Shown here piece after piece: positions 3,774-15,413 of a DNA stretch of 64,000 nucleotides (its first letter is position 1; each line of letters begins with the position of its first letter). Origin of the DNA: a virus (lineage: Duplodnaviria > Caudoviricetes). The DNA lies in the IMG/VR virus record IMGVR_UViG_3300032245_000902, positions 1 through 64,000 of that record; one strand, 5' to 3'. Both the position numbers and the translations under genes were made by a program. The notes under the pieces were generated by a model. That model saw only the letters and a list, made by a program, of their open reading frames with translations, had not been told where the DNA came from and ran no database searches.

Positions 3774-4057
3774 TGAACGATTTATTATATAATGTATTTG
3801 ATTGGATTCGTGATGATTGGAAGTCAGGTAGGGTTAGGTTCGTTGTTGAAATATTGGCGTGGGCAATCTCCATTGGATGTTCTATTACAATGGCTCTCAC
3901 CGTTCCTAACCCACCGTTACTCATCTTATATCCAATCTGGATTGCTGGGTGTGCTATGTACCTGTGGTGTGCTTTTACTCGCAAATCTTTTGGGATGGTT
4001 GCTAATTACTTGTTACTTACTACTATTGATACAATCGGCTTAATTAGAATGCTATGA
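3773..4057 (+). CDS. Small multi-pass membrane protein
   Basis: Three hydrophobic segments; TAATG coupling to the upstream gene. Confidence 0.7.
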   Translation: MNDLLYNVFDWIRDDWKSGRVRFVVEILAWAISIGCSITMALTVPNPPLLILYPIWIAGCAMYLWCAFTRKSFGMVANYLLLTTIDTIGLIRML

Positions 4058-4919: not shown

Positions 4920-4944
4920 TATTTTTGTACAGGAAGTGGTAATC

Positions 4945-5331
4945 ATGGATTTTAATTTTACAACATTAAATTATGATATAGATTTTACATATTGTTTTCC
5001 ATATGGCCTACATGACATACCGCAAATTGAGGTTCTAAGTGGTGATTATCTTGGATTAAAATTCGATTTGAAATCTTCTGCTGTATCTAGTAAATATGAA
5101 AATAATCAAATTAAACATGCATTATCGTATGAATATGTTATACACAATATGTGGCTAAATGTATCAAAACAACAATTTGACGGTAAACATATCACATTAA
5201 ATGAAAAAGACCAAAATGTCATACACAATTTGGTGTACAATTACATCAAACATTTTACAGAAGAACAAACCAAAATTAGTGTATCACAAAGTTCAAATAT
5301 AGATAAAAAAATAACAAATTATATAGTATAA
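4945..5331 (+). CDS. Hypothetical protein
   Basis: AGGAAG 8 nt before ATG 4945; track ORF 4936-5331. Confidence 0.6.
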   Translation: MDFNFTTLNYDIDFTYCFPYGLHDIPQIEVLSGDYLGLKFDLKSSAVSSKYENNQIKHALSYEYVIHNMWLNVSKQQFDGKHITLNEKDQNVIHNLVYNYIKHFTEEQTKISVSQSSNIDKKITNYIV

Positions 5332-5334
5332 ATA
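5327..5334 (+). promoter_or_regulatory. T4-type late promoter (TATAAATA)
   Basis: Exact T4 gp55 consensus 36 nt upstream of the ATG at 5371. Confidence 0.75.
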
Positions 5335-5370
5335 TATCGTTATGTATATATTAAACTTTAGGGGCATTGG

Positions 5371-6417
5371 ATGACAACACCATCGGGTCAAATATCATTA
5401 AGTCAAGTAAATACTGAACTAGGCTTTTCTGCGGCCGCAACGATTACAATGAATGATACTGTAGTTCGAAGCCTTGCTGGTGTGCCTAGTGGTCAGATTA
5501 CTATGGCCAACTTGCAAAATAAATCTTCAGCATGGACAGGCACAATCTCTAGCAACCAGCAGCAGATGGATCTTTATTCTTTTGCAACCGGTAACGGATA
5601 TCCAGGTTCTGGTGTAGCTCAAATTACAGTAGCACCAGGTGTTTATATTTGGTCTGACAGTACCGGCGCTGCAGCCATGACAATTCCTAGTGGTTTTGGT
5701 GCTGGTAATTTAACCCTTACTAATAACGGTTACATCATGGGTAAGGGAGGCCGAGGCGGTAACGGCTCTGTTCCTGAAAACGGACTTCCTGGTGGACCAG
5801 CAATTAGTATTAGTCAACCTGTGACCATTAACAACACTAACGGCAGCGCATACATTGGTGGTGGTGGTGGTGGCGCTGGTTCTGGTAGAGCAGCAACACC
5901 AGTCTATGCGGGTGGCGGTGGTGGTGTTGGTGGTGGTGATGGTGGAAATGGTGGTGGTACTCCTGGTGCCGGCGGTACTGGTGGTTCTATTGGAAATTCT
6001 GGTACACCAAACGGAAACGGTGCTGGTGGTGGCGGTGGTGGCGGTAGAGTATTTCCAGGTTCCGCATCAGCTGGCGGATTCACCGGTGGTCAGGGTTGGC
6101 CTGGTGGTGGTAATGGTGGTAGAGTAGGTGTTGTAAATCCACGAACCGCAACAATCTCACAAGCATCTGGTGGTGGCGGTGGTGGTTGGGGTGCTGCAGG
6201 AGGCCAAGGATTATTTTTAATTTCACCAAGCGGGCCAGCAAATGCATCGGGTATTGGTGGTTCCGGCAACAACGTTGGTGGACCCGCATTTGCTGGAGTT
6301 GGTGGAACTAGCAATCCTCGTCCTGGAGGTAGTGGTGGTCCAGCTGTAAGTTTAAATGGAAATTCAGTAACATGGGTTAGTGGCGACACTGCCAGAGTAT
6401 GGGGATCAGTATCATAG
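5371..6417 (+). CDS. Glycine-rich tail fibre adhesin, gp38-like (T2/S16 type)
   Basis: NNGYIMGKGGRGG, AYIGGGGGG, several GGGGG runs, GGGGGGWGAAGG and C-terminal GGPAV...VTW...VWGSVS fit the polyglycine adhesin layout. Confidence 0.75.
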   Translation: MTTPSGQISLSQVNTELGFSAAATITMNDTVVRSLAGVPSGQITMANLQNKSSAWTGTISSNQQQMDLYSFATGNGYPGSGVAQITVAPGVYIWSDSTGAAAMTIPSGFGAGNLTLTNNGYIMGKGGRGGNGSVPENGLPGGPAISISQPVTINNTNGSAYIGGGGGGAGSGRAATPVYAGGGGGVGGGDGGNGGGTPGAGGTGGSIGNSGTPNGNGAGGGGGGGRVFPGSASAGGFTGGQGWPGGGNGGRVGVVNPRTATISQASGGGGGGWGAAGGQGLFLISPSGPANASGIGGSGNNVGGPAFAGVGGTSNPRPGGSGGPAVSLNGNSVTWVSGDTARVWGSVS

Positions 6418-6435
6418 GAAAAAATAGGAAAAAAT

Positions 6436-7347
6436 ATGAAAAAATACACATTAGAAAGCCGTGTTACGGGATTAAGAGAAGAATTTGAGTCTTTTTCAGA
6501 TGCAGAAAAAAGACAAGAAGAACTTTATAAAGAATATATTTTAGATTCTCAGTATCTATTTAATATTTGTATACAAGAGTCTAAAAACGGACAAGATTGG
6601 TCACAAACACTTTGCGACAAAAATGGCAATCCAATTCGAATCATTGACGATTGGTTTTATCTACCAATTAATACCGGTATTTGGGGTGATGCGACTGTTA
6701 TGCAGTTGGGCCCTACAGTTTCTATGGGGACACAAAAAGAAGATGATATTTGGTTGTGGATTGACAACGGTCCCAGTTATAATTCCGGTGGTCAAGGACT
6801 GTTAAGCCAATACGAAAACGCTTCTGGTAAGGTTCTTCTTGGTGGATTAGGTTTGGGTATGTTAGCACTCTTATTAGATAATAAACCAGAGGTTACAGAG
6901 GTTACCGTTGTTGAAATAAATCAAAACGTAATTGATGCATTTAATTCCAATAATTGGAAGACAAGTAAAGTTAATATTGTTTGTGCAGATATTTTAACGT
7001 TTGAAGGATCTGGTTATGATTGGGTGTTATTGGACCATTACAACCAAACACAAAGTATTGAACTATACAATACTTATTTGGAACATATGTCTATCATTAA
7101 TCAAAATATTTCATATAATAATTTAGATTTATTTGCTTGGGAAGATGCATACTATTATTGGTTGGAACAAGAAGGTAAAGAACGTGGATTAGAAAGTTAT
7201 ACCGAGTTTGCTAATACTCTAAACCTACCAATATATTCGATTGAAACTCTAAATAAATATTATAATGCTTATCTATCTAATGGATTACCTGTCAACACCA
7301 ATTTAGTAAACGCTTTAAGATCGGTGTATGAATTAAACAACGAATAA
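6436..7347 (+). CDS. Class I SAM-dependent methyltransferase (spermidine-synthase-like) with an extra N-terminal domain
   Basis: GKVLLGGLGLG motif I, VTVVEIN motif II, IVCADI, YDWVLLD. Confidence 0.75.
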   Translation: MKKYTLESRVTGLREEFESFSDAEKRQEELYKEYILDSQYLFNICIQESKNGQDWSQTLCDKNGNPIRIIDDWFYLPINTGIWGDATVMQLGPTVSMGTQKEDDIWLWIDNGPSYNSGGQGLLSQYENASGKVLLGGLGLGMLALLLDNKPEVTEVTVVEINQNVIDAFNSNNWKTSKVNIVCADILTFEGSGYDWVLLDHYNQTQSIELYNTYLEHMSIINQNISYNNLDLFAWEDAYYYWLEQEGKERGLESYTEFANTLNLPIYSIETLNKYYNAYLSNGLPVNTNLVNALRSVYELNNE

Positions 7348-7372
7348 CATATGTGAAGAAGGTATTTTTATT

Positions 7373-8011
7373 ATGGCAACTAAAAAACAATCAACAAAAT
7401 CTCCATCAACACCTTCAGAAATTTTGAATTCTTATGGTGCTTTATTTTGTAAAGATATTGTGTCCAAAGAAATGAGTAATTTTTTAACTCATGTATTACT
7501 AAGAAAATATGGTGTTGATGGTAGAGAAGGTGATGAACAAATACCAAATGCTCTTTCTTTAATTGATCATGATTTATTTTTAGAAACGTTACAAGAACAA
7601 ATTTGGCCAAAATTGGAATATATTTTAGGTGAAGAATTACTTCCAACATATTCTTATTCAAGACTATACAGTAACGGAGATATCTTAGAAAAACACACCG
7701 ATAGGCCGGCATGTGAAATAAGTATCACGGTACAATTGGGACGGTCACATAACTATGCGTGGCCAATTTATATGGGTGATTATAGATATGATTTGGTGGA
7801 AGGTGATGGTGTAATTTATAGAGGTTGTGATGTAGCTCATTGGCGTAATCCTTGTGATGGGCCAGATAATTACTATTCCGGCCAAGTGTTTTTCCATTTT
7901 GTAAGAAAAAACGGAAAAAACGCAAAACAGTTTTGTGATCCATCCAACAGAAAAGTAAATCCAAAAACTTTTTTTGTTAAAAATAGAACTCACCTAATGA
8001 ATTTAAAATGA
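7373..8011 (+). CDS. 2OG-Fe(II) oxygenase
   Basis: LPTYSYSRLY...L..HTDRPACEISIT, GDGVIYRG...HWR, QVFFHFV. Confidence 0.85.
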   Translation: MATKKQSTKSPSTPSEILNSYGALFCKDIVSKEMSNFLTHVLLRKYGVDGREGDEQIPNALSLIDHDLFLETLQEQIWPKLEYILGEELLPTYSYSRLYSNGDILEKHTDRPACEISITVQLGRSHNYAWPIYMGDYRYDLVEGDGVIYRGCDVAHWRNPCDGPDNYYSGQVFFHFVRKNGKNAKQFCDPSNRKVNPKTFFVKNRTHLMNLK

Positions 8012-8039
8012 ATTTTATGATTGAATATATAGAAAGATA

Positions 8040-8639
8040 ATGATGATTGCACCTATTCCTCCAAGAACACATACTGTAGAAGCTCCAGTAGCATATTGGG
8101 ATAGTTTTCTAACCCAACAAGACGTTGATACCATTTTATCTTTGCCGCAATGGCATGATTGTGAACCCGGTCAAATTGGTAAAACCAACGATGGAATTAT
8201 AGATACAAACATACGAAATAGTGGCATTGTTTGGTTTACTCCTTGTGAAAAAACAAACCATATCTGGTTAAAAATTACTAATGCTATCGCAGAAGTGAAC
8301 AATCAATTTTTTCACTTTGATTTAAAAGGATGTTACGAACCAGCACAATTATCAATTTATAGAGCTAAAGATAAAGAACATTATGGTTGGCATGTGGACC
8401 ATGGTATGGATACTTTGACTCCACGAAAACTATCAATGTCACTCTTATTAAGTGATACTAATGAATTTAAAGGTGGAGAACTTGAAGTTAAGACAATTAA
8501 TGATGATCCGTTAACACTAGACCAACGGCAGGGTAGAGCCTGGTTCTTTCCTTCATACACACTACATAGAGTAACACCGGTGACAAAAGGTGTGAGGCGT
8601 TCATTGGTTCTTTGGGTTGGTGGGCCTCCTTTTAAATAA
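8040..8639 (+). CDS. 2OG-Fe(II) oxygenase (PKHD/prolyl-hydroxylase-like)
   Basis: YGWHVD, RKLSMSLLLS, FKGGEL, FPSYTLHRVTPVTKGVRRSLVLW. Confidence 0.9.
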   Translation: MMIAPIPPRTHTVEAPVAYWDSFLTQQDVDTILSLPQWHDCEPGQIGKTNDGIIDTNIRNSGIVWFTPCEKTNHIWLKITNAIAEVNNQFFHFDLKGCYEPAQLSIYRAKDKEHYGWHVDHGMDTLTPRKLSMSLLLSDTNEFKGGELEVKTINDDPLTLDQRQGRAWFFPSYTLHRVTPVTKGVRRSLVLWVGGPPFK

Positions 8640-8653
8640 TATGAAAGCACATA

Positions 8654-10108
8654 ATGATATTTGAAATACACGCAGAAAGAAGTGCCAACGATAAAAAGAT
8701 TTTTTATTACGATAACATGACCAACACACTAAAAGATAGTGATGGCAATGTTTTTGAATATCCAAAAGAATCCTACTCAAAACCCGAGCAAAAAGAATTC
8801 AAACCATTTGATAAAAATAATCCATTGGTTAAATCGAAGTTAATAACTCATTTAAAGATTCAAATGGGTTTAAGTTGTAATTATTCATGTGATTATTGTT
8901 CCCAAAAATTCGTAGAAAGACCAAAAGAAACATCCAAAAAAGATATTGATGCATTTTTGGAAAAACTGGAAGTATTGGAGTTTGATGAACAAAAAGGATT
9001 AAAAATTGAATTTTGGGGTGGTGAACCTTTTGTTTATTGGAAAACCATGAAACCTTTGGCCGAAGCTTTAAGAGAAAAGTTTACAACATGGGTCAGAAAA
9101 CCACAATTCTCAGTAATTACAAACGGATCAATTTTAACCGATGATATTATTGATTGGTTAATGATGATGAATTTTAGTGTATCAATATCCCATGATGGAC
9201 CAGGTCAATATGTTAGGGGTCCGGATCCTTTCGATGATCCGGAACAAAAGAATAGACTTATTGGTTTCTATCGCATGATGACCAGATTGAAAAAAAGTAT
9301 TAGTTTCAATCCAATGATGAATTCTAAAAACAAAAGTCGTAAAGAAGTTCGTGACTGGTTTGTTAATATGATAGGTGATGAAAATGTCCAATTGGGTGAA
9401 GGTGGTATTGTAGATGCTTATGATGAAGATGGCATCACAAACTCATTACAATCTTTACAAGAACATTTTGAATATCGTAGAACTTCATTCTCTGATTTCT
9501 ACACTATGGGTCAAAAACTAAACTTTGTTGGCCAATTCAGTAAGATTGATGATTTAACTCGCAGAATATTGACGCATGAAGAAGCCAAATATCTGAATCA
9601 AAAATGTGGTATGGATGATGAACACACATTGGCAATTGATCTGCGTGGTAATGTTATGACCTGTCAGAATGTGAGTGCGTTAGAAGATTCTAAGAATGGT
9701 GAATCACATTTGGGCGGCACATTAGATGATTATGAAAATGTTAAATTAAAATCTTCTACACATTGGTCGAATCGTAAAGAATGTTCTGGTTGTCCAGTTC
9801 TTCATATTTGCAAAGGTGCTTGTATGTTCCTAGACAAGAAGTTTTGGGATATCTCCTGTGCAAATGCCTACTCAGATAATGTTCCATTGTTTGCTATATC
9901 TCTAACTAATATAACCAATGGATATGTTCCAACATTAATTAAGGCTGAAGGTTTACCATTGGAACGACAAGATATTTTTGGTACTATCTTTGAACATAAA
10001 GAAGATATCAAAAAGAAAATTATTCCAATTAAAGTTGTTAGTGAAAAAATTGGTGAGATTGAAGGTGTTGAGGTTTACGGCCGTGCGAAAATTGTTGAAA
10101 CAAAATGA
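8654..10108 (+). CDS. Radical SAM protein with SPASM domain
   Basis: CNYSCDYC, FWGGEP, ITNGS, ISHDGP; complete 7-Cys SPASM motif C-x13-G-x4-C...CSGC-x5-C-x3-C...C. Confidence 0.95.
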   Translation: MIFEIHAERSANDKKIFYYDNMTNTLKDSDGNVFEYPKESYSKPEQKEFKPFDKNNPLVKSKLITHLKIQMGLSCNYSCDYCSQKFVERPKETSKKDIDAFLEKLEVLEFDEQKGLKIEFWGGEPFVYWKTMKPLAEALREKFTTWVRKPQFSVITNGSILTDDIIDWLMMMNFSVSISHDGPGQYVRGPDPFDDPEQKNRLIGFYRMMTRLKKSISFNPMMNSKNKSRKEVRDWFVNMIGDENVQLGEGGIVDAYDEDGITNSLQSLQEHFEYRRTSFSDFYTMGQKLNFVGQFSKIDDLTRRILTHEEAKYLNQKCGMDDEHTLAIDLRGNVMTCQNVSALEDSKNGESHLGGTLDDYENVKLKSSTHWSNRKECSGCPVLHICKGACMFLDKKFWDISCANAYSDNVPLFAISLTNITNGYVPTLIKAEGLPLERQDIFGTIFEHKEDIKKKIIPIKVVSEKIGEIEGVEVYGRAKIVETK

Positions 10109-10833
10109 TTGACGTAATATTATATGTTGTATTGGTATCACATATAACAATGGCTTTTGTGTCACTCTATTTGCATAGACACCTAACACACAGACACTTT
10201 ATATTAAATAATACTTTTAGACATATCATTCGTTTTTATTTGTGGTTAACCGATGGAGTTATTGCAAAGACATGGGTTGCACAACACAGAAAACACCATA
10301 GATATACGGATGTTCAAGGTGATCCACATTCACCTTTAATTATTGGAAAATGGAAGGTAATTTATACCAGTCTAATACCAAATTATGTTAAGTTATATGG
10401 TTATTATGATACCGATTGGGCACTAGAATATTATAGTAAAGGAACTCCGGATGATTGGATAGAAAAAAATATCTATGAAAAATATCCTAGGGTTGGTTTA
10501 AATATATTTTTGTTAATTAATATTTGTTTGTTCGGATTGGTTCCTGGATTTTTGGCATGGTTAGTTCATCTATTTTGGGTACCTTTTTGCACCACAGCCT
10601 CAATTACAGGTTTTGCTCATTTGTTTGGTTACAAACATCCCGATTCATCCGATAATAGCCACAATTTATTTCCAATAGGTGTATTGTTATGTGGAGATGA
10701 ATTACATAATAATCATCATAAGCAGCCTAATAATCCAAATTTTGCACACCGTTGGTTTGAATTTGATTTAACATATTGGTATGCTAGAATTTTTGCAAAG
10801 ATGGGTCTTTTGACCTTTACAAAAAATGATTGA
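10105..10833 (+). CDS. Membrane fatty-acid desaturase family protein (Delta9-like), copy 1
   Basis: His boxes HRHLTH, HRKHH, HNNHH; DPHSP; FEFD; TM helices. Confidence 0.9.
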   Translation: MIDVILYVVLVSHITMAFVSLYLHRHLTHRHFILNNTFRHIIRFYLWLTDGVIAKTWVAQHRKHHRYTDVQGDPHSPLIIGKWKVIYTSLIPNYVKLYGYYDTDWALEYYSKGTPDDWIEKNIYEKYPRVGLNIFLLINICLFGLVPGFLAWLVHLFWVPFCTTASITGFAHLFGYKHPDSSDNSHNLFPIGVLLCGDELHNNHHKQPNNPNFAHRWFEFDLTYWYARIFAKMGLLTFTKND

Positions 10834-11545
10834 ATATTTCATTTTGTATGTATTGATTACAACACATATCACAACAGTATTTTTTAGTTTGTATGTACAT
10901 AGGAGTTTAGCACACAAGCAATTTGAATTTCATCCTAAAATGGTTTCATTTATAAAATTTTGGTTGTGGTTGACCGATGGTTCCGGTGTGAGAGAATGGG
11001 TTGCAATACACCACGACCATCATAAGTATTCGGATAAAAAAGGTGACCCACATTTCTCATTTGTATCTGGATCAATATGGAACAGATTAAAGTCTATATT
11101 TGTTGTGTCGTTAAAATCCATATTTTTAGGTTATAGAAACTTTGCTACCGACCAACAAATTCAGTCATATGCAAATCACGTGTCTGGTGATTGGACTGAA
11201 AAATATCAAAGAATTGGTATTTTTATTTTACTAATTTTGAATATTATTCTGTTTGGTTATTGGGGCATATTGTCGTGGTTAATACAGATATCTTGGGCAA
11301 CCATTTGGTTAACAGTAATTGTGGCTATTGGAGCTCACCATTTTGGTTATCGTGAAAACGATTCTGATGATAACAGTAGAAATTTATGGCCTTTGGCAAT
11401 ACTGGTTGCAGGTGAAGAATTACACCACAATCACCACAAAAATACGAAAAATCCAAACTATAGAAATAAATGGTTTGAATTAGACTTAGGATGGCAATAC
11501 ATAAAAGTTCTAAGATTATTAGGATTAATTAAGATAAATACTTGA
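10826..11545 (+). CDS. Membrane fatty-acid desaturase family protein (Delta9-like), copy 2
   Basis: His boxes HRSLAH, HHDHH, HHNHH; GEELH; FELDLGW. Confidence 0.9.
   Translation: MIEYFILYVLITTHITTVFFSLYVHRSLAHKQFEFHPKMVSFIKFWLWLTDGSGVREWVAIHHDHHKYSDKKGDPHFSFVSGSIWNRLKSIFVVSLKSIFLGYRNFATDQQIQSYANHVSGDWTEKYQRIGIFILLILNIILFGYWGILSWLIQISWATIWLTVIVAIGAHHFGYRENDSDDNSRNLWPLAILVAGEELHHNHHKNTKNPNYRNKWFELDLGWQYIKVLRLLGLIKINT
11533..11540 (+). promoter_or_regulatory. Putative late promoter (GATAAATA)
   Basis: One mismatch to TATAAATA, 26 nt upstream of ATG 11567. Confidence 0.55.
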
Positions 11546-11566
11546 AAATAGTAAAAAGGTGAAAAA

Positions 11567-12469
11567 ATGACATTACCAGCTTCAGGACAAATAGGAATAT
11601 CAGATATTAATGTGGAAATAGGTCAAGCACCAACCTATTCCTCAAGCCTGAATTTTTTAAATAATCTGATTAAACCGGCCCAAAGACCAGCAGTTCCGGC
11701 CATTTCAGGTTTTTATTCTAAATCCTACTACCAAAGCACCACCGAAGGAAATTGTAATGCTGGAAATTGCAATTGTTCTGCTAATTGTGGTAATGTCAAC
11801 TGCAATCAATGTGCTTATGTCAGCACAATTAATTGTTCAAATTGTGATACACAATCTTGGTTACAAAGTGGAACAAACTGTGCATGTACCTACAATTGCA
11901 CATATGCTGAAACAAGTTATGCGTGTAATTGTACCTGTGCTTGTAGTAAAATTATTTGTACCAAATTATTCCAAATGGGTATGATGCCTTACGGTATATT
12001 TGTTGCAGACCAAGAATATGGTGAATGGCTTAAGAAGAATGACCGTGTTGTTTACAGAGGATATATTCGTTGGGCTAAAACTGTTACTGCATGGATGGAC
12101 GAAAAGGGTCCAGATTTCATGTTATGGGTATCTAAAGAAAACCGTAAACAAAAACAAAAAGAAGCAACCACAAAGTGGGCTCATTTAATTGTAACCCCTT
12201 GGTCTCACCACATGGCATATCTAATGGGTGCAGTTAAAACTGATGATGAAGTTGGTCGTTTATTAATGAAGATTGGTCGACCAATTTGCCGAGCTGTATT
12301 CTTACTACCAAAAGACTATGAATTGGGTTTATTGGGTTCATACATGATGTGGACACTATGTTTAGGTAGTTATGGCCTATCTAGTGCATATGTAAAAACC
12401 AAGACAAAATTAAAATCATTAAAAAATAATTTTATCAATAAAATTAAATTACTTTATCAAGGTCAATAA
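11567..12469 (+). CDS. Asn/Cys-rich protein: adhesin-like N-terminus, 15-Cys core, KIICT C-terminal domain; candidate radical SAM substrate
   Basis: N-terminus resembles ORF 5371; residues 63-126 hold 15 Cys; AAGGTG upstream of the start. Confidence 0.8.
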   Translation: MTLPASGQIGISDINVEIGQAPTYSSSLNFLNNLIKPAQRPAVPAISGFYSKSYYQSTTEGNCNAGNCNCSANCGNVNCNQCAYVSTINCSNCDTQSWLQSGTNCACTYNCTYAETSYACNCTCACSKIICTKLFQMGMMPYGIFVADQEYGEWLKKNDRVVYRGYIRWAKTVTAWMDEKGPDFMLWVSKENRKQKQKEATTKWAHLIVTPWSHHMAYLMGAVKTDDEVGRLLMKIGRPICRAVFLLPKDYELGLLGSYMMWTLCLGSYGLSSAYVKTKTKLKSLKNNFINKIKLLYQGQ

Positions 12470-12470
12470 T

Positions 12471-12827
12471 ATGACAAACTTTACTGCCGCTAATACAGAA
12501 ATTTTATCACCTAAAGATTTTGTCATACAAGATGTTGATGTTTATACTGAACACATGGATTATTATTTTGATGTTCAAATAAATGAAACAGCAAAACAAT
12601 TTTCTCCAGAAGAAAAAGATGAAATGTTTCACATGTTTCATGAACATTCTGATATCATTAAAAAATTAATTCACGCAAAAATTCCTTTGGTTGAATATGT
12701 GTTAGGAAATCCTTGGCCTCCAAAAGAAATTTTTGAAGATCCAAAATATGCACACATTAAAGTAAGAGAGTATGACTGTTGGTTAATTGCTGCATATGAA
12801 GAATGGAAAAAGTCTAAAGGGCTATAA
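12471..12827 (+). CDS. Hypothetical acidic protein
   Basis: 118-aa ORF starting 1 nt after the Cys-rich gene. Confidence 0.75.
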   Translation: MTNFTAANTEILSPKDFVIQDVDVYTEHMDYYFDVQINETAKQFSPEEKDEMFHMFHEHSDIIKKLIHAKIPLVEYVLGNPWPPKEIFEDPKYAHIKVREYDCWLIAAYEEWKKSKGL

Positions 12828-12841
12828 TTAAAAATAATATT

Positions 12842-13432
12842 ATGAACATAGTGAGAAATGATTGGTGGACTACACCAGTCTGGGAAATACAAACAGACTT
12901 TGACGAAAAATTTAATAATAATTTACTCAGAGAAGCAAATTCAAGTAACCACATTAATGTATGGAATAATGATACACCATGTATCAATGAACTGAAACAA
13001 TATACTATAGATATTGTAACACAACTGGCATCTCCTTACATCTCTCAAAACTTCCGAGATTTTACATTTTGGCACACTAATGGGTGGATAAATTATCTAC
13101 ACCCAGGTAAACATATGCCTATACATGGCCATGGTGGACCTAAGATTGCTTTGACATATTACATTAAAGCTCAAGAAAATTCTGGTGATTTACTTCTGAT
13201 TGATCCTAGAGGTGGTTGTGATTGGGACAATGGTACTGATGGAGTAAACGGTACAAAGTTCAAAAGAATTAAACCAGCAGAAAGTAAATTGGTATTTTTT
13301 CCTGGTTTTGTTTTACACACAATAGAATCCAATCAATCAAGTGAAACACGAGTATCTTTGTCCAGCAATTTAGGAACATTTGATAGTGATAATGTAACAA
13401 AGAAATTATACGATTCACTTAAAAATGAATAA
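12842..13432 (+). CDS. Putative 2OG-Fe(II) oxygenase (TIGR02466-like)
   Basis: W.N......HGH, YYIK, SGDL...DPR, LVFFP.F..H....N.S...RVSLS.N. Confidence 0.85.
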   Translation: MNIVRNDWWTTPVWEIQTDFDEKFNNNLLREANSSNHINVWNNDTPCINELKQYTIDIVTQLASPYISQNFRDFTFWHTNGWINYLHPGKHMPIHGHGGPKIALTYYIKAQENSGDLLLIDPRGGCDWDNGTDGVNGTKFKRIKPAESKLVFFPGFVLHTIESNQSSETRVSLSSNLGTFDSDNVTKKLYDSLKNE

Positions 13433-13973
13433 TCTATTTTGTAAACTAAACAAAAATTTTCTGATTAATGATTATGTTGTCTATGATATGCAACAACAAT
13501 TTGGTCAAGAAGATAATGGTGAATTCATTGGTATTCGGTATAGTAATGTTGATTTTAAAAATAAAAATGATATTATGAATATAATACCTAGAGCTTATCA
13601 CTCTTGTTTTTTTATGACAATCATGCGGATTAATACAACAATACCACCTCACACCGATAGTGGTATCAAATCAACAATTAATTTTTATATTAAAACAGAT
13701 GATTGTATCACACAATTTTATAAGTATAAAACAAACACACCAAAAAAACGGCAAATTGAAAATCAAACAAACGGTTACATATTTGATATAAATGATTTGG
13801 AAGAAATGGATTCTTTTCTTGCCAAACCTACCGAAGCATGGGTATTAAATGTATCAGAACCACATTCAGTTATACCAAAATATGAATTTAAAGATAGATT
13901 AGCTATTGCCTTATCTTCAGAATTAGATTATAATACGGTGTGTGATATATTAAAAGAAGAAGGACACCTGTAA
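13425..13973 (+). CDS. Cupin / 2OG-Fe(II) oxygenase-like protein
   Basis: IPPHTD, INFY, WVLNVSEPHSV, RLAIALS (HxD...H...R). Confidence 0.7.
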   Translation: MNNLFCKLNKNFLINDYVVYDMQQQFGQEDNGEFIGIRYSNVDFKNKNDIMNIIPRAYHSCFFMTIMRINTTIPPHTDSGIKSTINFYIKTDDCITQFYKYKTNTPKKRQIENQTNGYIFDINDLEEMDSFLAKPTEAWVLNVSEPHSVIPKYEFKDRLAIALSSELDYNTVCDILKEEGHL

Positions 13974-14755
13974 TGTTTTATGAAAAATTAGATTTTATTG
14001 AGTTTGATTTGGAAAAATTAAGAGATGATGTGAGAAACCATGTCTTTACTTTAGGCAACCAAGTATTACAAGGTGAAGAATTTGAAACTCCACAATATCA
14101 TGGATTTGGTGGTTGGAGTTTGTTAAGTAGAACTGGTGAATGGCAAGATGGTTTTGAATTCTTCCAAACTGGTGAGAATGAGGAATTTCAAGATGATTTT
14201 TTCCCTAAAGGTCAAAATAATTTTAAAGTATTAAAATATTTAAATGTTGCACATTCAATGGAGTATAAAAATCCTACACAGGCTTGTGTTGGTGAAATAA
14301 AAAATGTGATAGACCAAATTGAATCTTATGGTTTTTATCCTAGAAGAGCAAGAGTAACTTGCTTGCAAGCTGGTTGTAAATCATTGGTGCATAGTGATGG
14401 ACCACAATCAGAATATATTGCTCGTATTCACATACCTTTGTTTACAAATAAAAAGTGTGTTTTCATATGTGATGGTGTGGATTTACACATGGAAGCCGGA
14501 TCAGTTTACATGGTGTGGGTAAACACATGGCACCAAATAAGAAATGATTCAGATGAAGATAGATATCACATTATCATTGATGCTTATGATACAAAACATA
14601 TAACAAAGAATTTTAAATATGAAGGTGATATTAAACAGTTGGAACAATATGCAGAAGAATATAGAAAAAATTTAAATGAAACAATTGTTACTGAAGAAGA
14701 TATTATAAAATTTGAAAAGATAAAAGAAAAGTATATAACAAAAAATGACATTTAA
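13973..14755 (+). CDS. Aspartyl/asparaginyl beta-hydroxylase-like oxygenase
   Basis: RARVTCL..G.....HSD, RIHIPLFTN, HMEAGSVY.V.....HQIRN.S.EDRYHIIID. Confidence 0.8.
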   Translation: MFYEKLDFIEFDLEKLRDDVRNHVFTLGNQVLQGEEFETPQYHGFGGWSLLSRTGEWQDGFEFFQTGENEEFQDDFFPKGQNNFKVLKYLNVAHSMEYKNPTQACVGEIKNVIDQIESYGFYPRRARVTCLQAGCKSLVHSDGPQSEYIARIHIPLFTNKKCVFICDGVDLHMEAGSVYMVWVNTWHQIRNDSDEDRYHIIIDAYDTKHITKNFKYEGDIKQLEQYAEEYRKNLNETIVTEEDIIKFEKIKEKYITKNDI

Positions 14756-15413
14756 TTACTGCCCACCTAAATCATTACCAGACTTAAAGTCCGAAACCTT
14801 TCCTGACGGCAAGAGATACTATACATTAGAAGATGGTACAAAACTTCCATCGGTTACTACTGTGCTTGGCGCCCAAAAGAAGGCAGGTATTATGGCATGG
14901 CGTAAGAAGGTGGGTGAAGAAGAAGCTAACCGAGTATCGAGAATTGCAACAGGTCGTGGTACCGCAGTCCATACATTATGTGAGAATTATTTAAACAATA
15001 ATGATTTAGGTTCTGCAATGCCAGATGCACTTGAAATGTTCCTATCTCTCAAGCCATTACTTAATCGTATCAACAACATACATTACCAAGAGTGTGCATT
15101 GTGGTCCAAACAATTGGAGATGGCGGGTAGGGTTGATTGTATTGCTGAGTTCGATGGCAAGTTATCTGTGATTGACTTTAAGACCTCCAAGCGTGCCAAG
15201 ACAGAGGCACACATTGAGGATTACTTCTGGCAAACAACCGCATATGCCTTGATGTATGAGGAGATGATTGGTACACCTATTGATGATATCATTATTATTA
15301 TGGCTGTGGAGAATGACCTGCCATTAATATTTAAACAGAAAACCGCTGACCACATACCTGGATTGGTGAAAGCAATAAATTATTACAAAGAGAGTTCTAC
15401 AAAGCATAAATAA
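14745..15413 (+). CDS. PD-(D/E)XK exonuclease of T4-like phages
   Basis: PSVTTVL, RGT.VH...E, AGRVDCIAE, VIDFKTS, Q..AY. Confidence 0.85.
   Translation: MTFNYCPPKSLPDLKSETFPDGKRYYTLEDGTKLPSVTTVLGAQKKAGIMAWRKKVGEEEANRVSRIATGRGTAVHTLCENYLNNNDLGSAMPDALEMFLSLKPLLNRINNIHYQECALWSKQLEMAGRVDCIAEFDGKLSVIDFKTSKRAKTEAHIEDYFWQTTAYALMYEEMIGTPIDDIIIIMAVENDLPLIFKQKTADHIPGLVKAINYYKESSTKHK
15405..15412 (+). promoter_or_regulatory. Putative late promoter (CATAAATA)
   Basis: One mismatch to consensus; directly precedes a structured leader and ORF 15470. Confidence 0.55.

Follow-up and report, generated by a model that had tools for sequence, protein, structure and literature searches.

We analyzed a 64,000-nucleotide stretch of viral DNA (Duplodnaviria; Caudoviricetes), positions 1 to 64,000 of IMG/VR record IMGVR_UViG_3300032245_000902 and referred to here as the window, for a radical S-adenosylmethionine (SAM)/SPASM enzyme and a nearby protein that carries a module rich in Cys and Asn. 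Genes are named by their first position in the window, so that the enzyme is gene 8654 and the module-bearing protein, called the carrier, is gene 11567. The full record is 90.9 kb long and is estimated to be 53% complete. Because its baseplate wedge protein resembles the counterparts in Pelagibacter phage HTVC008M and Methylophilales phage Melnitz (40 to 43% identity), the source virus is, judged from this protein, an uncultured T4-like myovirus. All genes between positions 4000 and 18000 lie on the plus strand, and the G+C content is about 35%. An initial annotation, made from the letters of the sequence, had proposed that the enzyme acts on the Cys/Asn module; the features that bear on this proposal are collected in Table 1.

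Table 1. Positions of the enzyme, the carrier and its parts, and the surrounding genes in the window
Feature	Coordinates	Strand	Basis
Radical SAM/SPASM enzyme, 484 amino acids (aa), 10 Cys	8654..10108	+	Pfam, NCBIfam, AlphaFold2 (AF2), Foldseek
Carrier of the Cys/Asn module, 300 aa, likely substrate	11567..12469	+	Homologues beside the enzyme
N-terminal 19-aa "anchor" motif of the carrier	11567..11623	+	Common to the Gly-rich protein at 5371-6417
Cys/Asn-rich module, aa 62-126 of the carrier	11750..11944	+	Cys count, conserved core
C-terminal all-helical domain of the carrier	11945..12469	+	AF2
Two tandem DesA-like fatty-acid desaturase paralogues	10105..11545	+	Pfam FA_desaturase; NCBIfam DesA_fam_desat below cutoff
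Acidic protein, 118 aa, companion of the pair	12471..12827	+	Co-occurrence
2-Oxoglutarate (2OG)-Fe(II) oxygenase (2OG-FeII_Oxy_5), companion of the pair	12842..13432	+	Pfam, E 1e-12
Protein of 182 aa without a family match, companion of the pair	13425..13973	+	Co-occurrence
Asp/Asn beta-hydroxylase-like protein, companion of the pair	13973..14755	+	Pfam Asp_Arg_Hydrox
PD-(D/E)XK nuclease-family gene, right flank of the island	14745..15413	+	Pfam, E 1.9e-8
Gly-rich protein bearing the anchor motif, 348 aa	5371..6417	+	Shared N terminus, weak fibre matches

The enzyme contains exactly ten cysteines, of which C75, C79, and C82 form a CxxxCxxC motif, the cluster motif that radical SAM proteins have in a partial TIM barrel, while C318, C337, C377, C380, C386, C390, and C402 match the seven-Cys SPASM pattern, which serves two auxiliary 4Fe-4S clusters, and all ten are invariant in an alignment of 29 homologues. 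Pfam Radical_SAM (PF04055) matched residues 72 to 186 (E 4.7e-9; 37.1 bits, cutoff 29.5), and the NCBIfam SPASM domain model TIGR04085 matched residues 318 to 393 (35.1 bits, cutoff 27), so by these two profiles the protein belongs to the SPASM subgroup of the radical SAM superfamily, in agreement with the motifs that the initial annotation had picked out. In the AF2 model (mean predicted local distance difference test [pLDDT] score, 84), the barrel begins at about residue 66 and the SPASM region spans residues 318 to 402, followed by a C-terminal extension. A Foldseek search with this model returned anSMEcpe, CteB, ChlB, and TigE at E values of 3e-12 to 5e-11, the top match being anSMEcpe (4k36; E 3.4e-12), tied with CteB; among proteins with solved structures, TigE and CteB are the closest in sequence.

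The best NCBIfam matches of the enzyme are to PapB (E 7e-24; residues 65 to 392, nearly full length) and QhpD (E 1e-21), followed by the geopeptide, nif11, YhhB, CcpM, HxsB, SCIFF, DynA, and TIGR04463 models. All of these best rows describe peptide or protein maturases, and all of the matches fall far below the family cutoffs. The possibility raised earlier, that the enzyme might group with SPASM proteins acting on non-peptide substrates, was checked, and by NCBIfam matches, solved sequences, and folds alike it groups with protein and peptide modifiers. There is no NxxcB model among its 25 best NCBIfam rows, and no comparison aimed at NxxcB sequences was made. In a HMMER scan of 1.84 billion representatives, we found 282 relatives at an E value of ≤1e-30 (these being clusters at 50% identity), 904 at 1e-10, and 6,204 at 1e-3; four bacterial homologues gave the same picture in NCBIfam, with peptide or protein maturase models as best rows, far below cutoff. 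On these searches the enzyme family is distinct and moderate in size, no curated family covers the enzyme, and NCBIfam holds no model for it or its partners. The distant member P0087 is a tandem of two radical SAM/SPASM units in 800 aa, and two others (P0092 and P0140) end in a domain of about 130 aa that, by eye, resembles an acetyltransferase.

The initial annotation also described an extension of about 65 aa ahead of the radical SAM core and suggested that it could be a substrate-recognizing domain of the PqqD or RiPP recognition element (RRE) type (RiPP, ribosomally synthesized and posttranslationally modified peptide). The length agrees with the model, in which the first barrel strand comprises residues 66 to 74, and the domain type does not. 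The extension is predicted to be a three-strand beta sheet (residues 3 to 10, 13 to 20, and 25 to 28; pLDDT, 93 to 96) and then a linker, and the first helix comes no earlier than residue 95, whereas a canonical RRE is a winged helix-turn-helix of three strands and three helices. Residues 1 to 69 had no Pfam match at E values up to 1, and residues 1 to 60 of the enzyme and 1 to 92 of CteB both fall outside the alignment of the two proteins. Thus, as modeled, and judged without a profile-profile comparison to PqqD, the extension is not a canonical PqqD/RRE domain. Its core residues F17, Y19, D20, and N21 vary little or not at all among family members, so the extension matters.

In the carrier, residues 62 to 126 contain 15 Cys, 13 Asn, and 10 Asn-Cys (NC) dipeptides within 65 aa, exactly the Cys and NC counts first reported for this core, and the several NxxC spacings noted then number four in residues 55 to 131, together with five CxC spacings. 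Of the 84 stop-to-stop open reading frames (ORFs) of at least 100 aa in the window, that of the carrier has the highest Cys density (15 per 65 aa); the runner-up, at 10 per 65 aa, lies in a frame that is not listed as an ORF of at least 200 aa. Across 28 carrier sequences GNC61-63, LQ99-100, NC110-111, C124, and C126 are invariant, and the conserved core recurs in contigs of Polynucleobacter, Paraburkholderia, and Hyphomicrobiaceae. When shorter proteins were searched for homologues of the module by word index, only four matches came up, and these added nothing. The AF2 model built from 28 homologues gives residues 50 to 127 a pLDDT of 31 to 36 as a monomer, with the rest of the chain predicted confidently. 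At an invariant K128-I129-x-C131 junction begins an all-helical domain (residues 129 to 298; pLDDT, 79 to 93) with a long terminal helix that is hydrophobic and then basic. A complex prediction for the enzyme with carrier residues 40 to 135 scored 0.00, was run without controls, and was used neither way.

We found no Pfam, PHROG, or NCBIfam family for the carrier, no recognizable fibre domain in it by Pfam or PHROG, though the module or tail sits on true fibres in relatives, and no PDB match for its model at E ≤0.001 in Foldseek. For the C-terminal domain, a protein atlas gave only unnamed viral clusters, and Pfam gave no usable match at E ≤1. This domain is modular and confined to phages. It occurs in 53 of the 80 viral loci described below, ends a 616-aa protein of Synechococcus phage SynMITS9220M01 (L003, 4669-6519) after Ig-like and Gly-rich regions, a run of about 35 Pro, and a run of eight Arg, is C-terminal in an 886-aa DUF4815 protein and in others, and occurs on a protein adjoining a "fiber protein" gene. 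Possible roles are those of a membrane tether, a chaperone, or a removable domain. A Hint domain was rejected for this position, as the region is all-helical and has no Hint match, and so was a Cys-His protease, given the all-helical fold and the lack of an invariant His. A NEL E3-ligase fold was likewise set aside, because the VIA-align wide scores (SlrP, Z 7.0; SspH1, 6.8; IpaH, 5.1) are within helical-bundle noise; the resemblance is a lead only.

The N-terminal anchor motif is identical at 11 of 19 positions between the carrier and the Gly-rich 5371 protein (BLASTP E 0.006 in a single comparison). Among the window ORFs, a regular expression for the motif found just these two proteins, and the motif is kept at the N terminus of carrier types A, B, and C. 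The 5371 protein has a weak Pfam GP38 match (E 0.0075, below the cutoff) and a PHROG tail-fibre match (E 1.1e-5). In two relatives (L051 and L054), a single protein combines the anchor, a Gly-rich region, and the Cys module; BLASTP gave no match between the 5371 protein and the Gly-rich fusion protein of L054. By its sequence, the 5371 protein may be an alternative tip or adhesin protein. A T4 late-promoter box, TATAAATA, occurs once in the 64 kb (5327-5334), against 8.7 expected, and stands 37 bp before gene 5371. The perfect TATAAATA box is absent before the enzyme-carrier pair; one-mismatch variants precede genes 8654 and 11567 and prove nothing.

The pairing of enzyme and module was assessed in four sets of loci. 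The forward set was drawn from IMG/VR with the enzyme as the seed and contains the best 80 of 109 confirmed relatives (43 to 90% identity); a locus was counted when a same-strand ORF beside the enzyme had at least 10 Cys, at least four NC dipeptides, and at least two CxC. This was the case in 74 of the 80 loci, and two more (L081 and L082) have ORFs with NC runs, giving 76 of 80; in the remaining four (L005, L011, L057, and L059), the enzyme lies at the contig end. The carriers take several forms. Those of about 300 aa lie directly downstream of the enzyme, 4 to 43 bp away in most loci, with a gap of about 1.45 kb in six loci (the window included) and of about 0.75 kb in three. Carriers of 115 to 176 aa lie directly upstream and have the module at the protein end, while upstream carriers of 366 to 371 aa join the anchor motif, a Gly-rich region, and the Cys module. 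Fibre proteins of 891 and 1,082 aa that end in NCNCNC lie about 1.9 kb upstream of the enzyme, the former with CBM_5_12 and pectinesterase-like matches. In L081 the carrier is a 395-aa fibre-like protein (7779-8966) with the NC run at its end after a His-rich stretch. At 3431-4211 in L082, 3.4 kb upstream of the enzyme, are three tandem ORFs of 81 to 88 aa, each ending in a four-unit NC/AC run, which together resemble a multi-copy precursor array.

The reverse set was built from DNA encoding NCNCNC followed by a stop codon. At least 118 such stretches were found, and 80 were made into loci. In 43 of these 80, the match ends an ORF of at least 85 aa or one cut by the locus end, and an enzyme gene lies on the same strand, 17 to 3,284 bp downstream, in 28 of the 43. 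When at least 2.5 kb of downstream flank was available, the enzyme was present in 23 of 25 loci, the exceptions being L146 and L158. The matches in short spurious frames served as a control, and none of them had the enzyme (0 of 37; 0 of 23 with flank).

The bacterial (prophage) set was collected with an enzyme profile and holds the best 80 of 125 relatives (31 to 70% identity) from Limnohabitans, Polynucleobacter, Burkholderia paludis MSh1, Paraburkholderia, Rhodobacter, Thalassobacter, and many metagenome-assembled genomes. A run of at least three xC units including NC, on the same strand and within -3.5 to +5 kb of the enzyme, was found in 62 of the 80 loci and in 62 of the 64 with enough upstream flank; 16 of the 18 loci without a run have at most 2,054 bp upstream, and the other two (L269 and L273) have the full flank. 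The run ends no more than 12 residues from the C terminus in 51 of the 62 loci. After it comes a Hint domain in L212 and L278 to L280 and a helical domain of the window type in L202 and L203. Such runs are rare, occurring in just 126 of the 8,109 ORFs of at least 80 aa in the 160 enzyme-seeded loci.

The fourth set was anchored on the flanking gene 4054 (best 80 of at least 599 stretches), and 44 of its loci have at least 4.5 kb downstream. Nine of these 44 have both the enzyme and the module gene, 35 have neither, and none has one alone; six of the nine are on contigs already in the forward set. Since the two genes co-occur in both search directions in unrelated phages and prophages and follow this both-or-neither pattern, the enzyme and the Cys/Asn module protein very probably form a functional enzyme-substrate pair, and the coupling first proposed for the window holds at the gene level.

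True tail fibres of other phages carry the Cys run as their C-terminal tail, in some cases with a Hint domain after it. Two isolated phages have the pair. In Achromobacter phage JWF, gp28 is a fibre-like protein whose record mentions Phage T4 gp36; its ladder of six xC units (NC/DC) ends precisely at the initial Cys of a Hint domain (Pfam Hom_end_hint, 308-344), and a 42%-identical enzyme homologue is encoded two genes downstream. Ralstonia phage RSP15 has a "putative side tail fiber protein" with the terminal sequence NCQCGN, and its 44%-identical enzyme is encoded three genes further on. Among the loci examined, a true Hint domain follows the run only in JWF gp28, L212, and L278 to L280. The core thus does sit inside a 300-aa protein rather than a short precursor, as first described, and in relatives the module or tail is found at fibre ends. 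Carriers range from 115 to more than 1,000 aa, recognizable fibres included, and so differ from a RiPP precursor, a leader-core peptide of less than about 100 aa that is set free once modified; no protease or exporter gene was found beside the pair among Pfam and PHROG matches. Because the carrier shares its N terminus with the 5371 protein and its fibre matches, and because of the fibre context in relatives, we consider a virion fibre-tip or adhesin role for the 300-aa carrier somewhat probable. In many fibre proteins of about 400 aa, a His-rich stretch directly precedes the NC tail (L093, L110, L113, L115, L116, L125, L127, L132, L136, L143, L145, L152, and L155, in addition to the L081 protein).

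Further genes travel with the pair. In the anchored set, genes 12471, 13425, and 13973 each occur in seven of the nine loci with the pair and in none of the 35 without it, and the 2OG-FeII_Oxy_5 gene 12842 occurs in nine of nine and two of 35, respectively; relatives of the latter are also present in L080 and, by tblastn, in 23 of the 80 prophage loci. This co-occurrence places the pair in a mobile cassette, which in the window would extend from 8654 to 14755, between the conserved genes 4054 and 4641 and the PD-(D/E)XK gene 14745, itself present in nearly all 44 anchored relatives. The gene 12471 product has no family at E ≤0.01 and nothing usable in Pfam at E ≤1. The gene 13425 product has no Pfam (E ≤1) or NCBIfam match and shows, by eye, an HxD...H pattern, which suggests another oxygenase. 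The Asp_Arg_Hydrox match of gene 13973 has an E value of 2.8e-10 (40.7 bits, cutoff 22.6).

The window has two insertions in addition to the cassette. One is the block of genes 4936 to 8639 (a 131-aa ORF, the Gly-rich gene 5371, the methyltransferase-like gene 6436, and the 2OG-Fe(II) oxygenase-type genes 7373 and 8040), which is absent in relatives, where gene 4641 directly precedes the enzyme. The other is the two desaturases of 239 to 242 aa, whose genes overlap each other and the enzyme gene; their NCBIfam scores of 210 to 248 bits stay below the cutoff of 400, and of the 385 model positions only the first two thirds are matched. We rejected the desaturases as part of the system, as they occur in only 12 of the 80 viral loci. 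In the clade made up of the prophages and the relatives of 40 to 47% identity, the NC-tailed fibre gene and the enzyme gene are separated by a gene of about 240 to 325 aa without a Pfam family (for example, L081 8979-9956, L080 8090-8815, and L001 4314-5129), which encodes the end motif G-[YF]-K-[YFW]-[WF]; tblastn found relatives of it in up to 34 of the 80 bacterial loci.

The explanation that we favor, with modest confidence, is that the enzyme is a dedicated maturase of the Cys/Asn module (about residues 55 to 127 of the carrier) on a fibre-tip or adhesin-type protein. The radical SAM cluster would cleave SAM to give a 5'-deoxyadenosyl radical, which would take a hydrogen from a residue adjoining a Cys held on an auxiliary SPASM cluster; a thioether would then form, the likeliest acceptor being the beta-carbon of the residue three positions upstream. 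Repeated linking would turn a disordered module into a rigid knot resistant to reduction and proteases, which in other phages would be the mature C-terminal end of the tail fibre. The three to four oxygenase-type companions found in T4-like relatives would probably add further changes, such as hydroxylation. The Cys residues are the likely targets because no feature other than the Cys run is shared by every carrier, and we infer that their sulfurs would be the modified atoms, joined by thioethers within one chain on a protein carried in the virion.

Thioethers are the usual products of radical SAM/SPASM enzymes acting on Cys-rich cores. Given this and the NxxcB and CrpC precedents, thioether ladders are the favored product, and by this analogy we would put Cys-based thioether cross-linking by the enzyme at an even chance. 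Every NCNC unit fits the NxxC motif of the NxxcB/NxxcA system, which is thus present in the module and throughout the tails. In 166 distinct (xC)n runs, the x positions are Asn in 69%, Ala in 16%, and Asp in 8%, in a sample that was selected for NC and is therefore biased toward Asn; since 16% of the positions are Ala, a link made to Asn alone cannot be general. Streptococcal NxxcB is described as linking the Cys sulfur to the beta-carbon of the Asn three residues upstream and as tolerating Ala, Gln, or Asp as the acceptor (PMC9389541). The x residues here, mostly Asn, Ala, and Asp, resemble that range; the substrate NxxcA is a short leader-core peptide with one motif, unlike the 15 to 30 Cys on proteins of 115 to more than 1,000 aa seen here.

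CrpC of Methanococcus voltae, a radical SAM/SPASM enzyme, is described as installing ranthionine links on a 28.8-kDa Cys-rich protein (Dieter et al. 2026, PMC13692751). Like the system proposed here, CrpC and CrpA combine a three-cluster SPASM enzyme with several thioethers and a Cys-rich protein substrate encoded next to it, and binding is described as not resting on a canonical leader alone. Unlike it, CrpC has a predicted RRE, which enzyme 8654 lacks; the CrpA motifs (CAGM, CAVD, and CPLV) put the Cys before the acceptor, without Asn-Cys ladders; and the host is archaeal, without a phage or fibre context, the words "phage," "Asn," and "tail" being absent from the text of that report (PMC13692751). 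PapB (ranthipeptide) and CteB (SCIFF) also act on Cys-rich cores and are, respectively, the best NCBIfam match and among the best solved matches of the enzyme, but their substrates are short peptides bound via an N-terminal RRE. QhpD uses Asp and Glu as acceptors. As the second-best NCBIfam match, it is also alike in having a protein-subunit substrate that stays in an assembly, being described as pre-forming three intra-chain cross-links in a subunit of a larger complex (PMC7876137); it differs in that QhpD and QhpC belong to a cofactor pathway with QhpG, with no phage context.

We weighed three other explanations. The enzyme might perform other radical chemistry on the module, such as aromatic-Asn-Cys cyclophane C-C links, epimerization, or links between fibre chains. 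Cyclophane-forming families do appear among its NCBIfam matches (YhhB at 1e-17, FxsB, AmcB, XyeB, and GrrM), and many NC runs have Tyr or Phe immediately ahead of them (TYNC and SYNC in the module; RYNC, YYYNC, and YFNC in tails). However, those matches all fall far below their cutoffs, many tails have no aromatic residue ahead of the run, and the Cys alone are conserved throughout the runs, so we regard this as unlikely. A slightly less probable alternative is that the ladder Cys are oxidized to formylglycine, as by the anaerobic sulfatase-maturating enzyme (anSME), giving, rather than a cross-link, aldehydes that might undergo further reactions or bind a receptor. It would account for the top fold match and for the annotation of the JWF homologue, named "anaerobic sulfatase-maturating enzyme" by its depositors, and anSME acts on a Cys of whole proteins without an RRE, which enzyme 8654 also lacks. 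The anSME target motif is C-x-P/A-x-R, and it is missing from all 16 Cys contexts in carrier residues 63 to 131; there is no sulfatase nearby, and the NCBIfam anaerobic sulfatase maturase model TIGR03942 scores only 49.5 bits against a cutoff of 349, below PapB, QhpD, and others.

We consider it improbable, and the least probable of the three, that the Cys ladder is merely a metal-binding or disulfide element of the fibre tip while the enzyme acts elsewhere, for instance on another fibre-module protein, a sugar, or a lipid. CxC ladders commonly serve as metal ligands, and His-rich stretches directly precede many NC tails. The fibre and enzyme genes are separated by another conserved gene in the prophage clade, and the pair in the window by the two desaturases. 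Against this, the T4-like clade lacks the intervening gene and the desaturases are infrequent, Asn, which most often partners the Cys, binds metals poorly, and the Cys run, which all carriers share, is gained and lost together with the enzyme, with no exception in the anchored loci. Metal binding and cross-linking are also not mutually exclusive.

Several observations weigh against a dedicated thioether-forming maturase. The pairing is broken in two prophage loci (L269 and L273) and two reverse-set loci (L146 and L158), and the seed sets overlap on contigs (for example, L097/L055 and L152/L081), so that their counts are not fully independent. T4 gp37 has HxH iron sites, and the His-rich stretches resemble such fibre-tip metal sites, so the Cys might mainly bind metal. 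Long Ala-Cys stretches in some tails (for example, L064 to L073 and L278 to L280) preclude Cys-Asn links where they occur. The enzyme has no canonical RRE, and its best fold match is shared between a formylglycine maker (anSME) and CteB. It falls outside the PapB family NF047865 (84.6 bits, cutoff 340), the QhpD family TIGR03906 (77.2 bits, cutoff 453, with a match to the N-terminal half only), and the CrpC-type family TIGR04463 (52.7 bits, cutoff 525). The membrane-like terminal helix of the carrier would be odd for a virion protein.

Literature searches turned up no radical SAM modification of a fibre protein, and no report was found of a radical SAM enzyme paired with Cys-tailed fibre proteins, although Supplemental Data set 1 of PMC13692751 ("similar BGCs across all domains of life," for biosynthetic gene clusters) could list viral examples. 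Passages of three papers touch on phage radical SAM genes, though only in passing (PMC12801897, PMC7029224, and PMC10783043), one of which places radical SAM cassettes in the host-recognition cluster of pelagimyophages (PMC7029224). The pair is thus probably part of an undescribed protein-maturation system of phage fibre tips. We propose tentatively that many tailed viruses ranging from T4-like freshwater myoviruses to Burkholderiales and alphaproteobacterial prophages may staple the C-terminal tips of fibres or adhesins by means of this uncurated radical SAM/SPASM family, with thioether ladders that are possibly inter-chain and to which oxygenases may add changes.

Phage fibre tips decide host range. 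If the proposal is correct, this would be the first case in which an enzyme covalently matures a host-recognition organelle of the virion in the manner of RiPPs, and RiPP-type thioether chemistry would extend, through a widespread enzyme family, from small peptides to virion proteins. It would also explain the odd Asn-Cys tails on hundreds of fibre genes, and fibre proteins expressed without their enzyme may then be immature. The modification would offer a new handle for engineering stable receptor-binding tips, and the pair is at hand in two isolated phages, JWF and RSP15.

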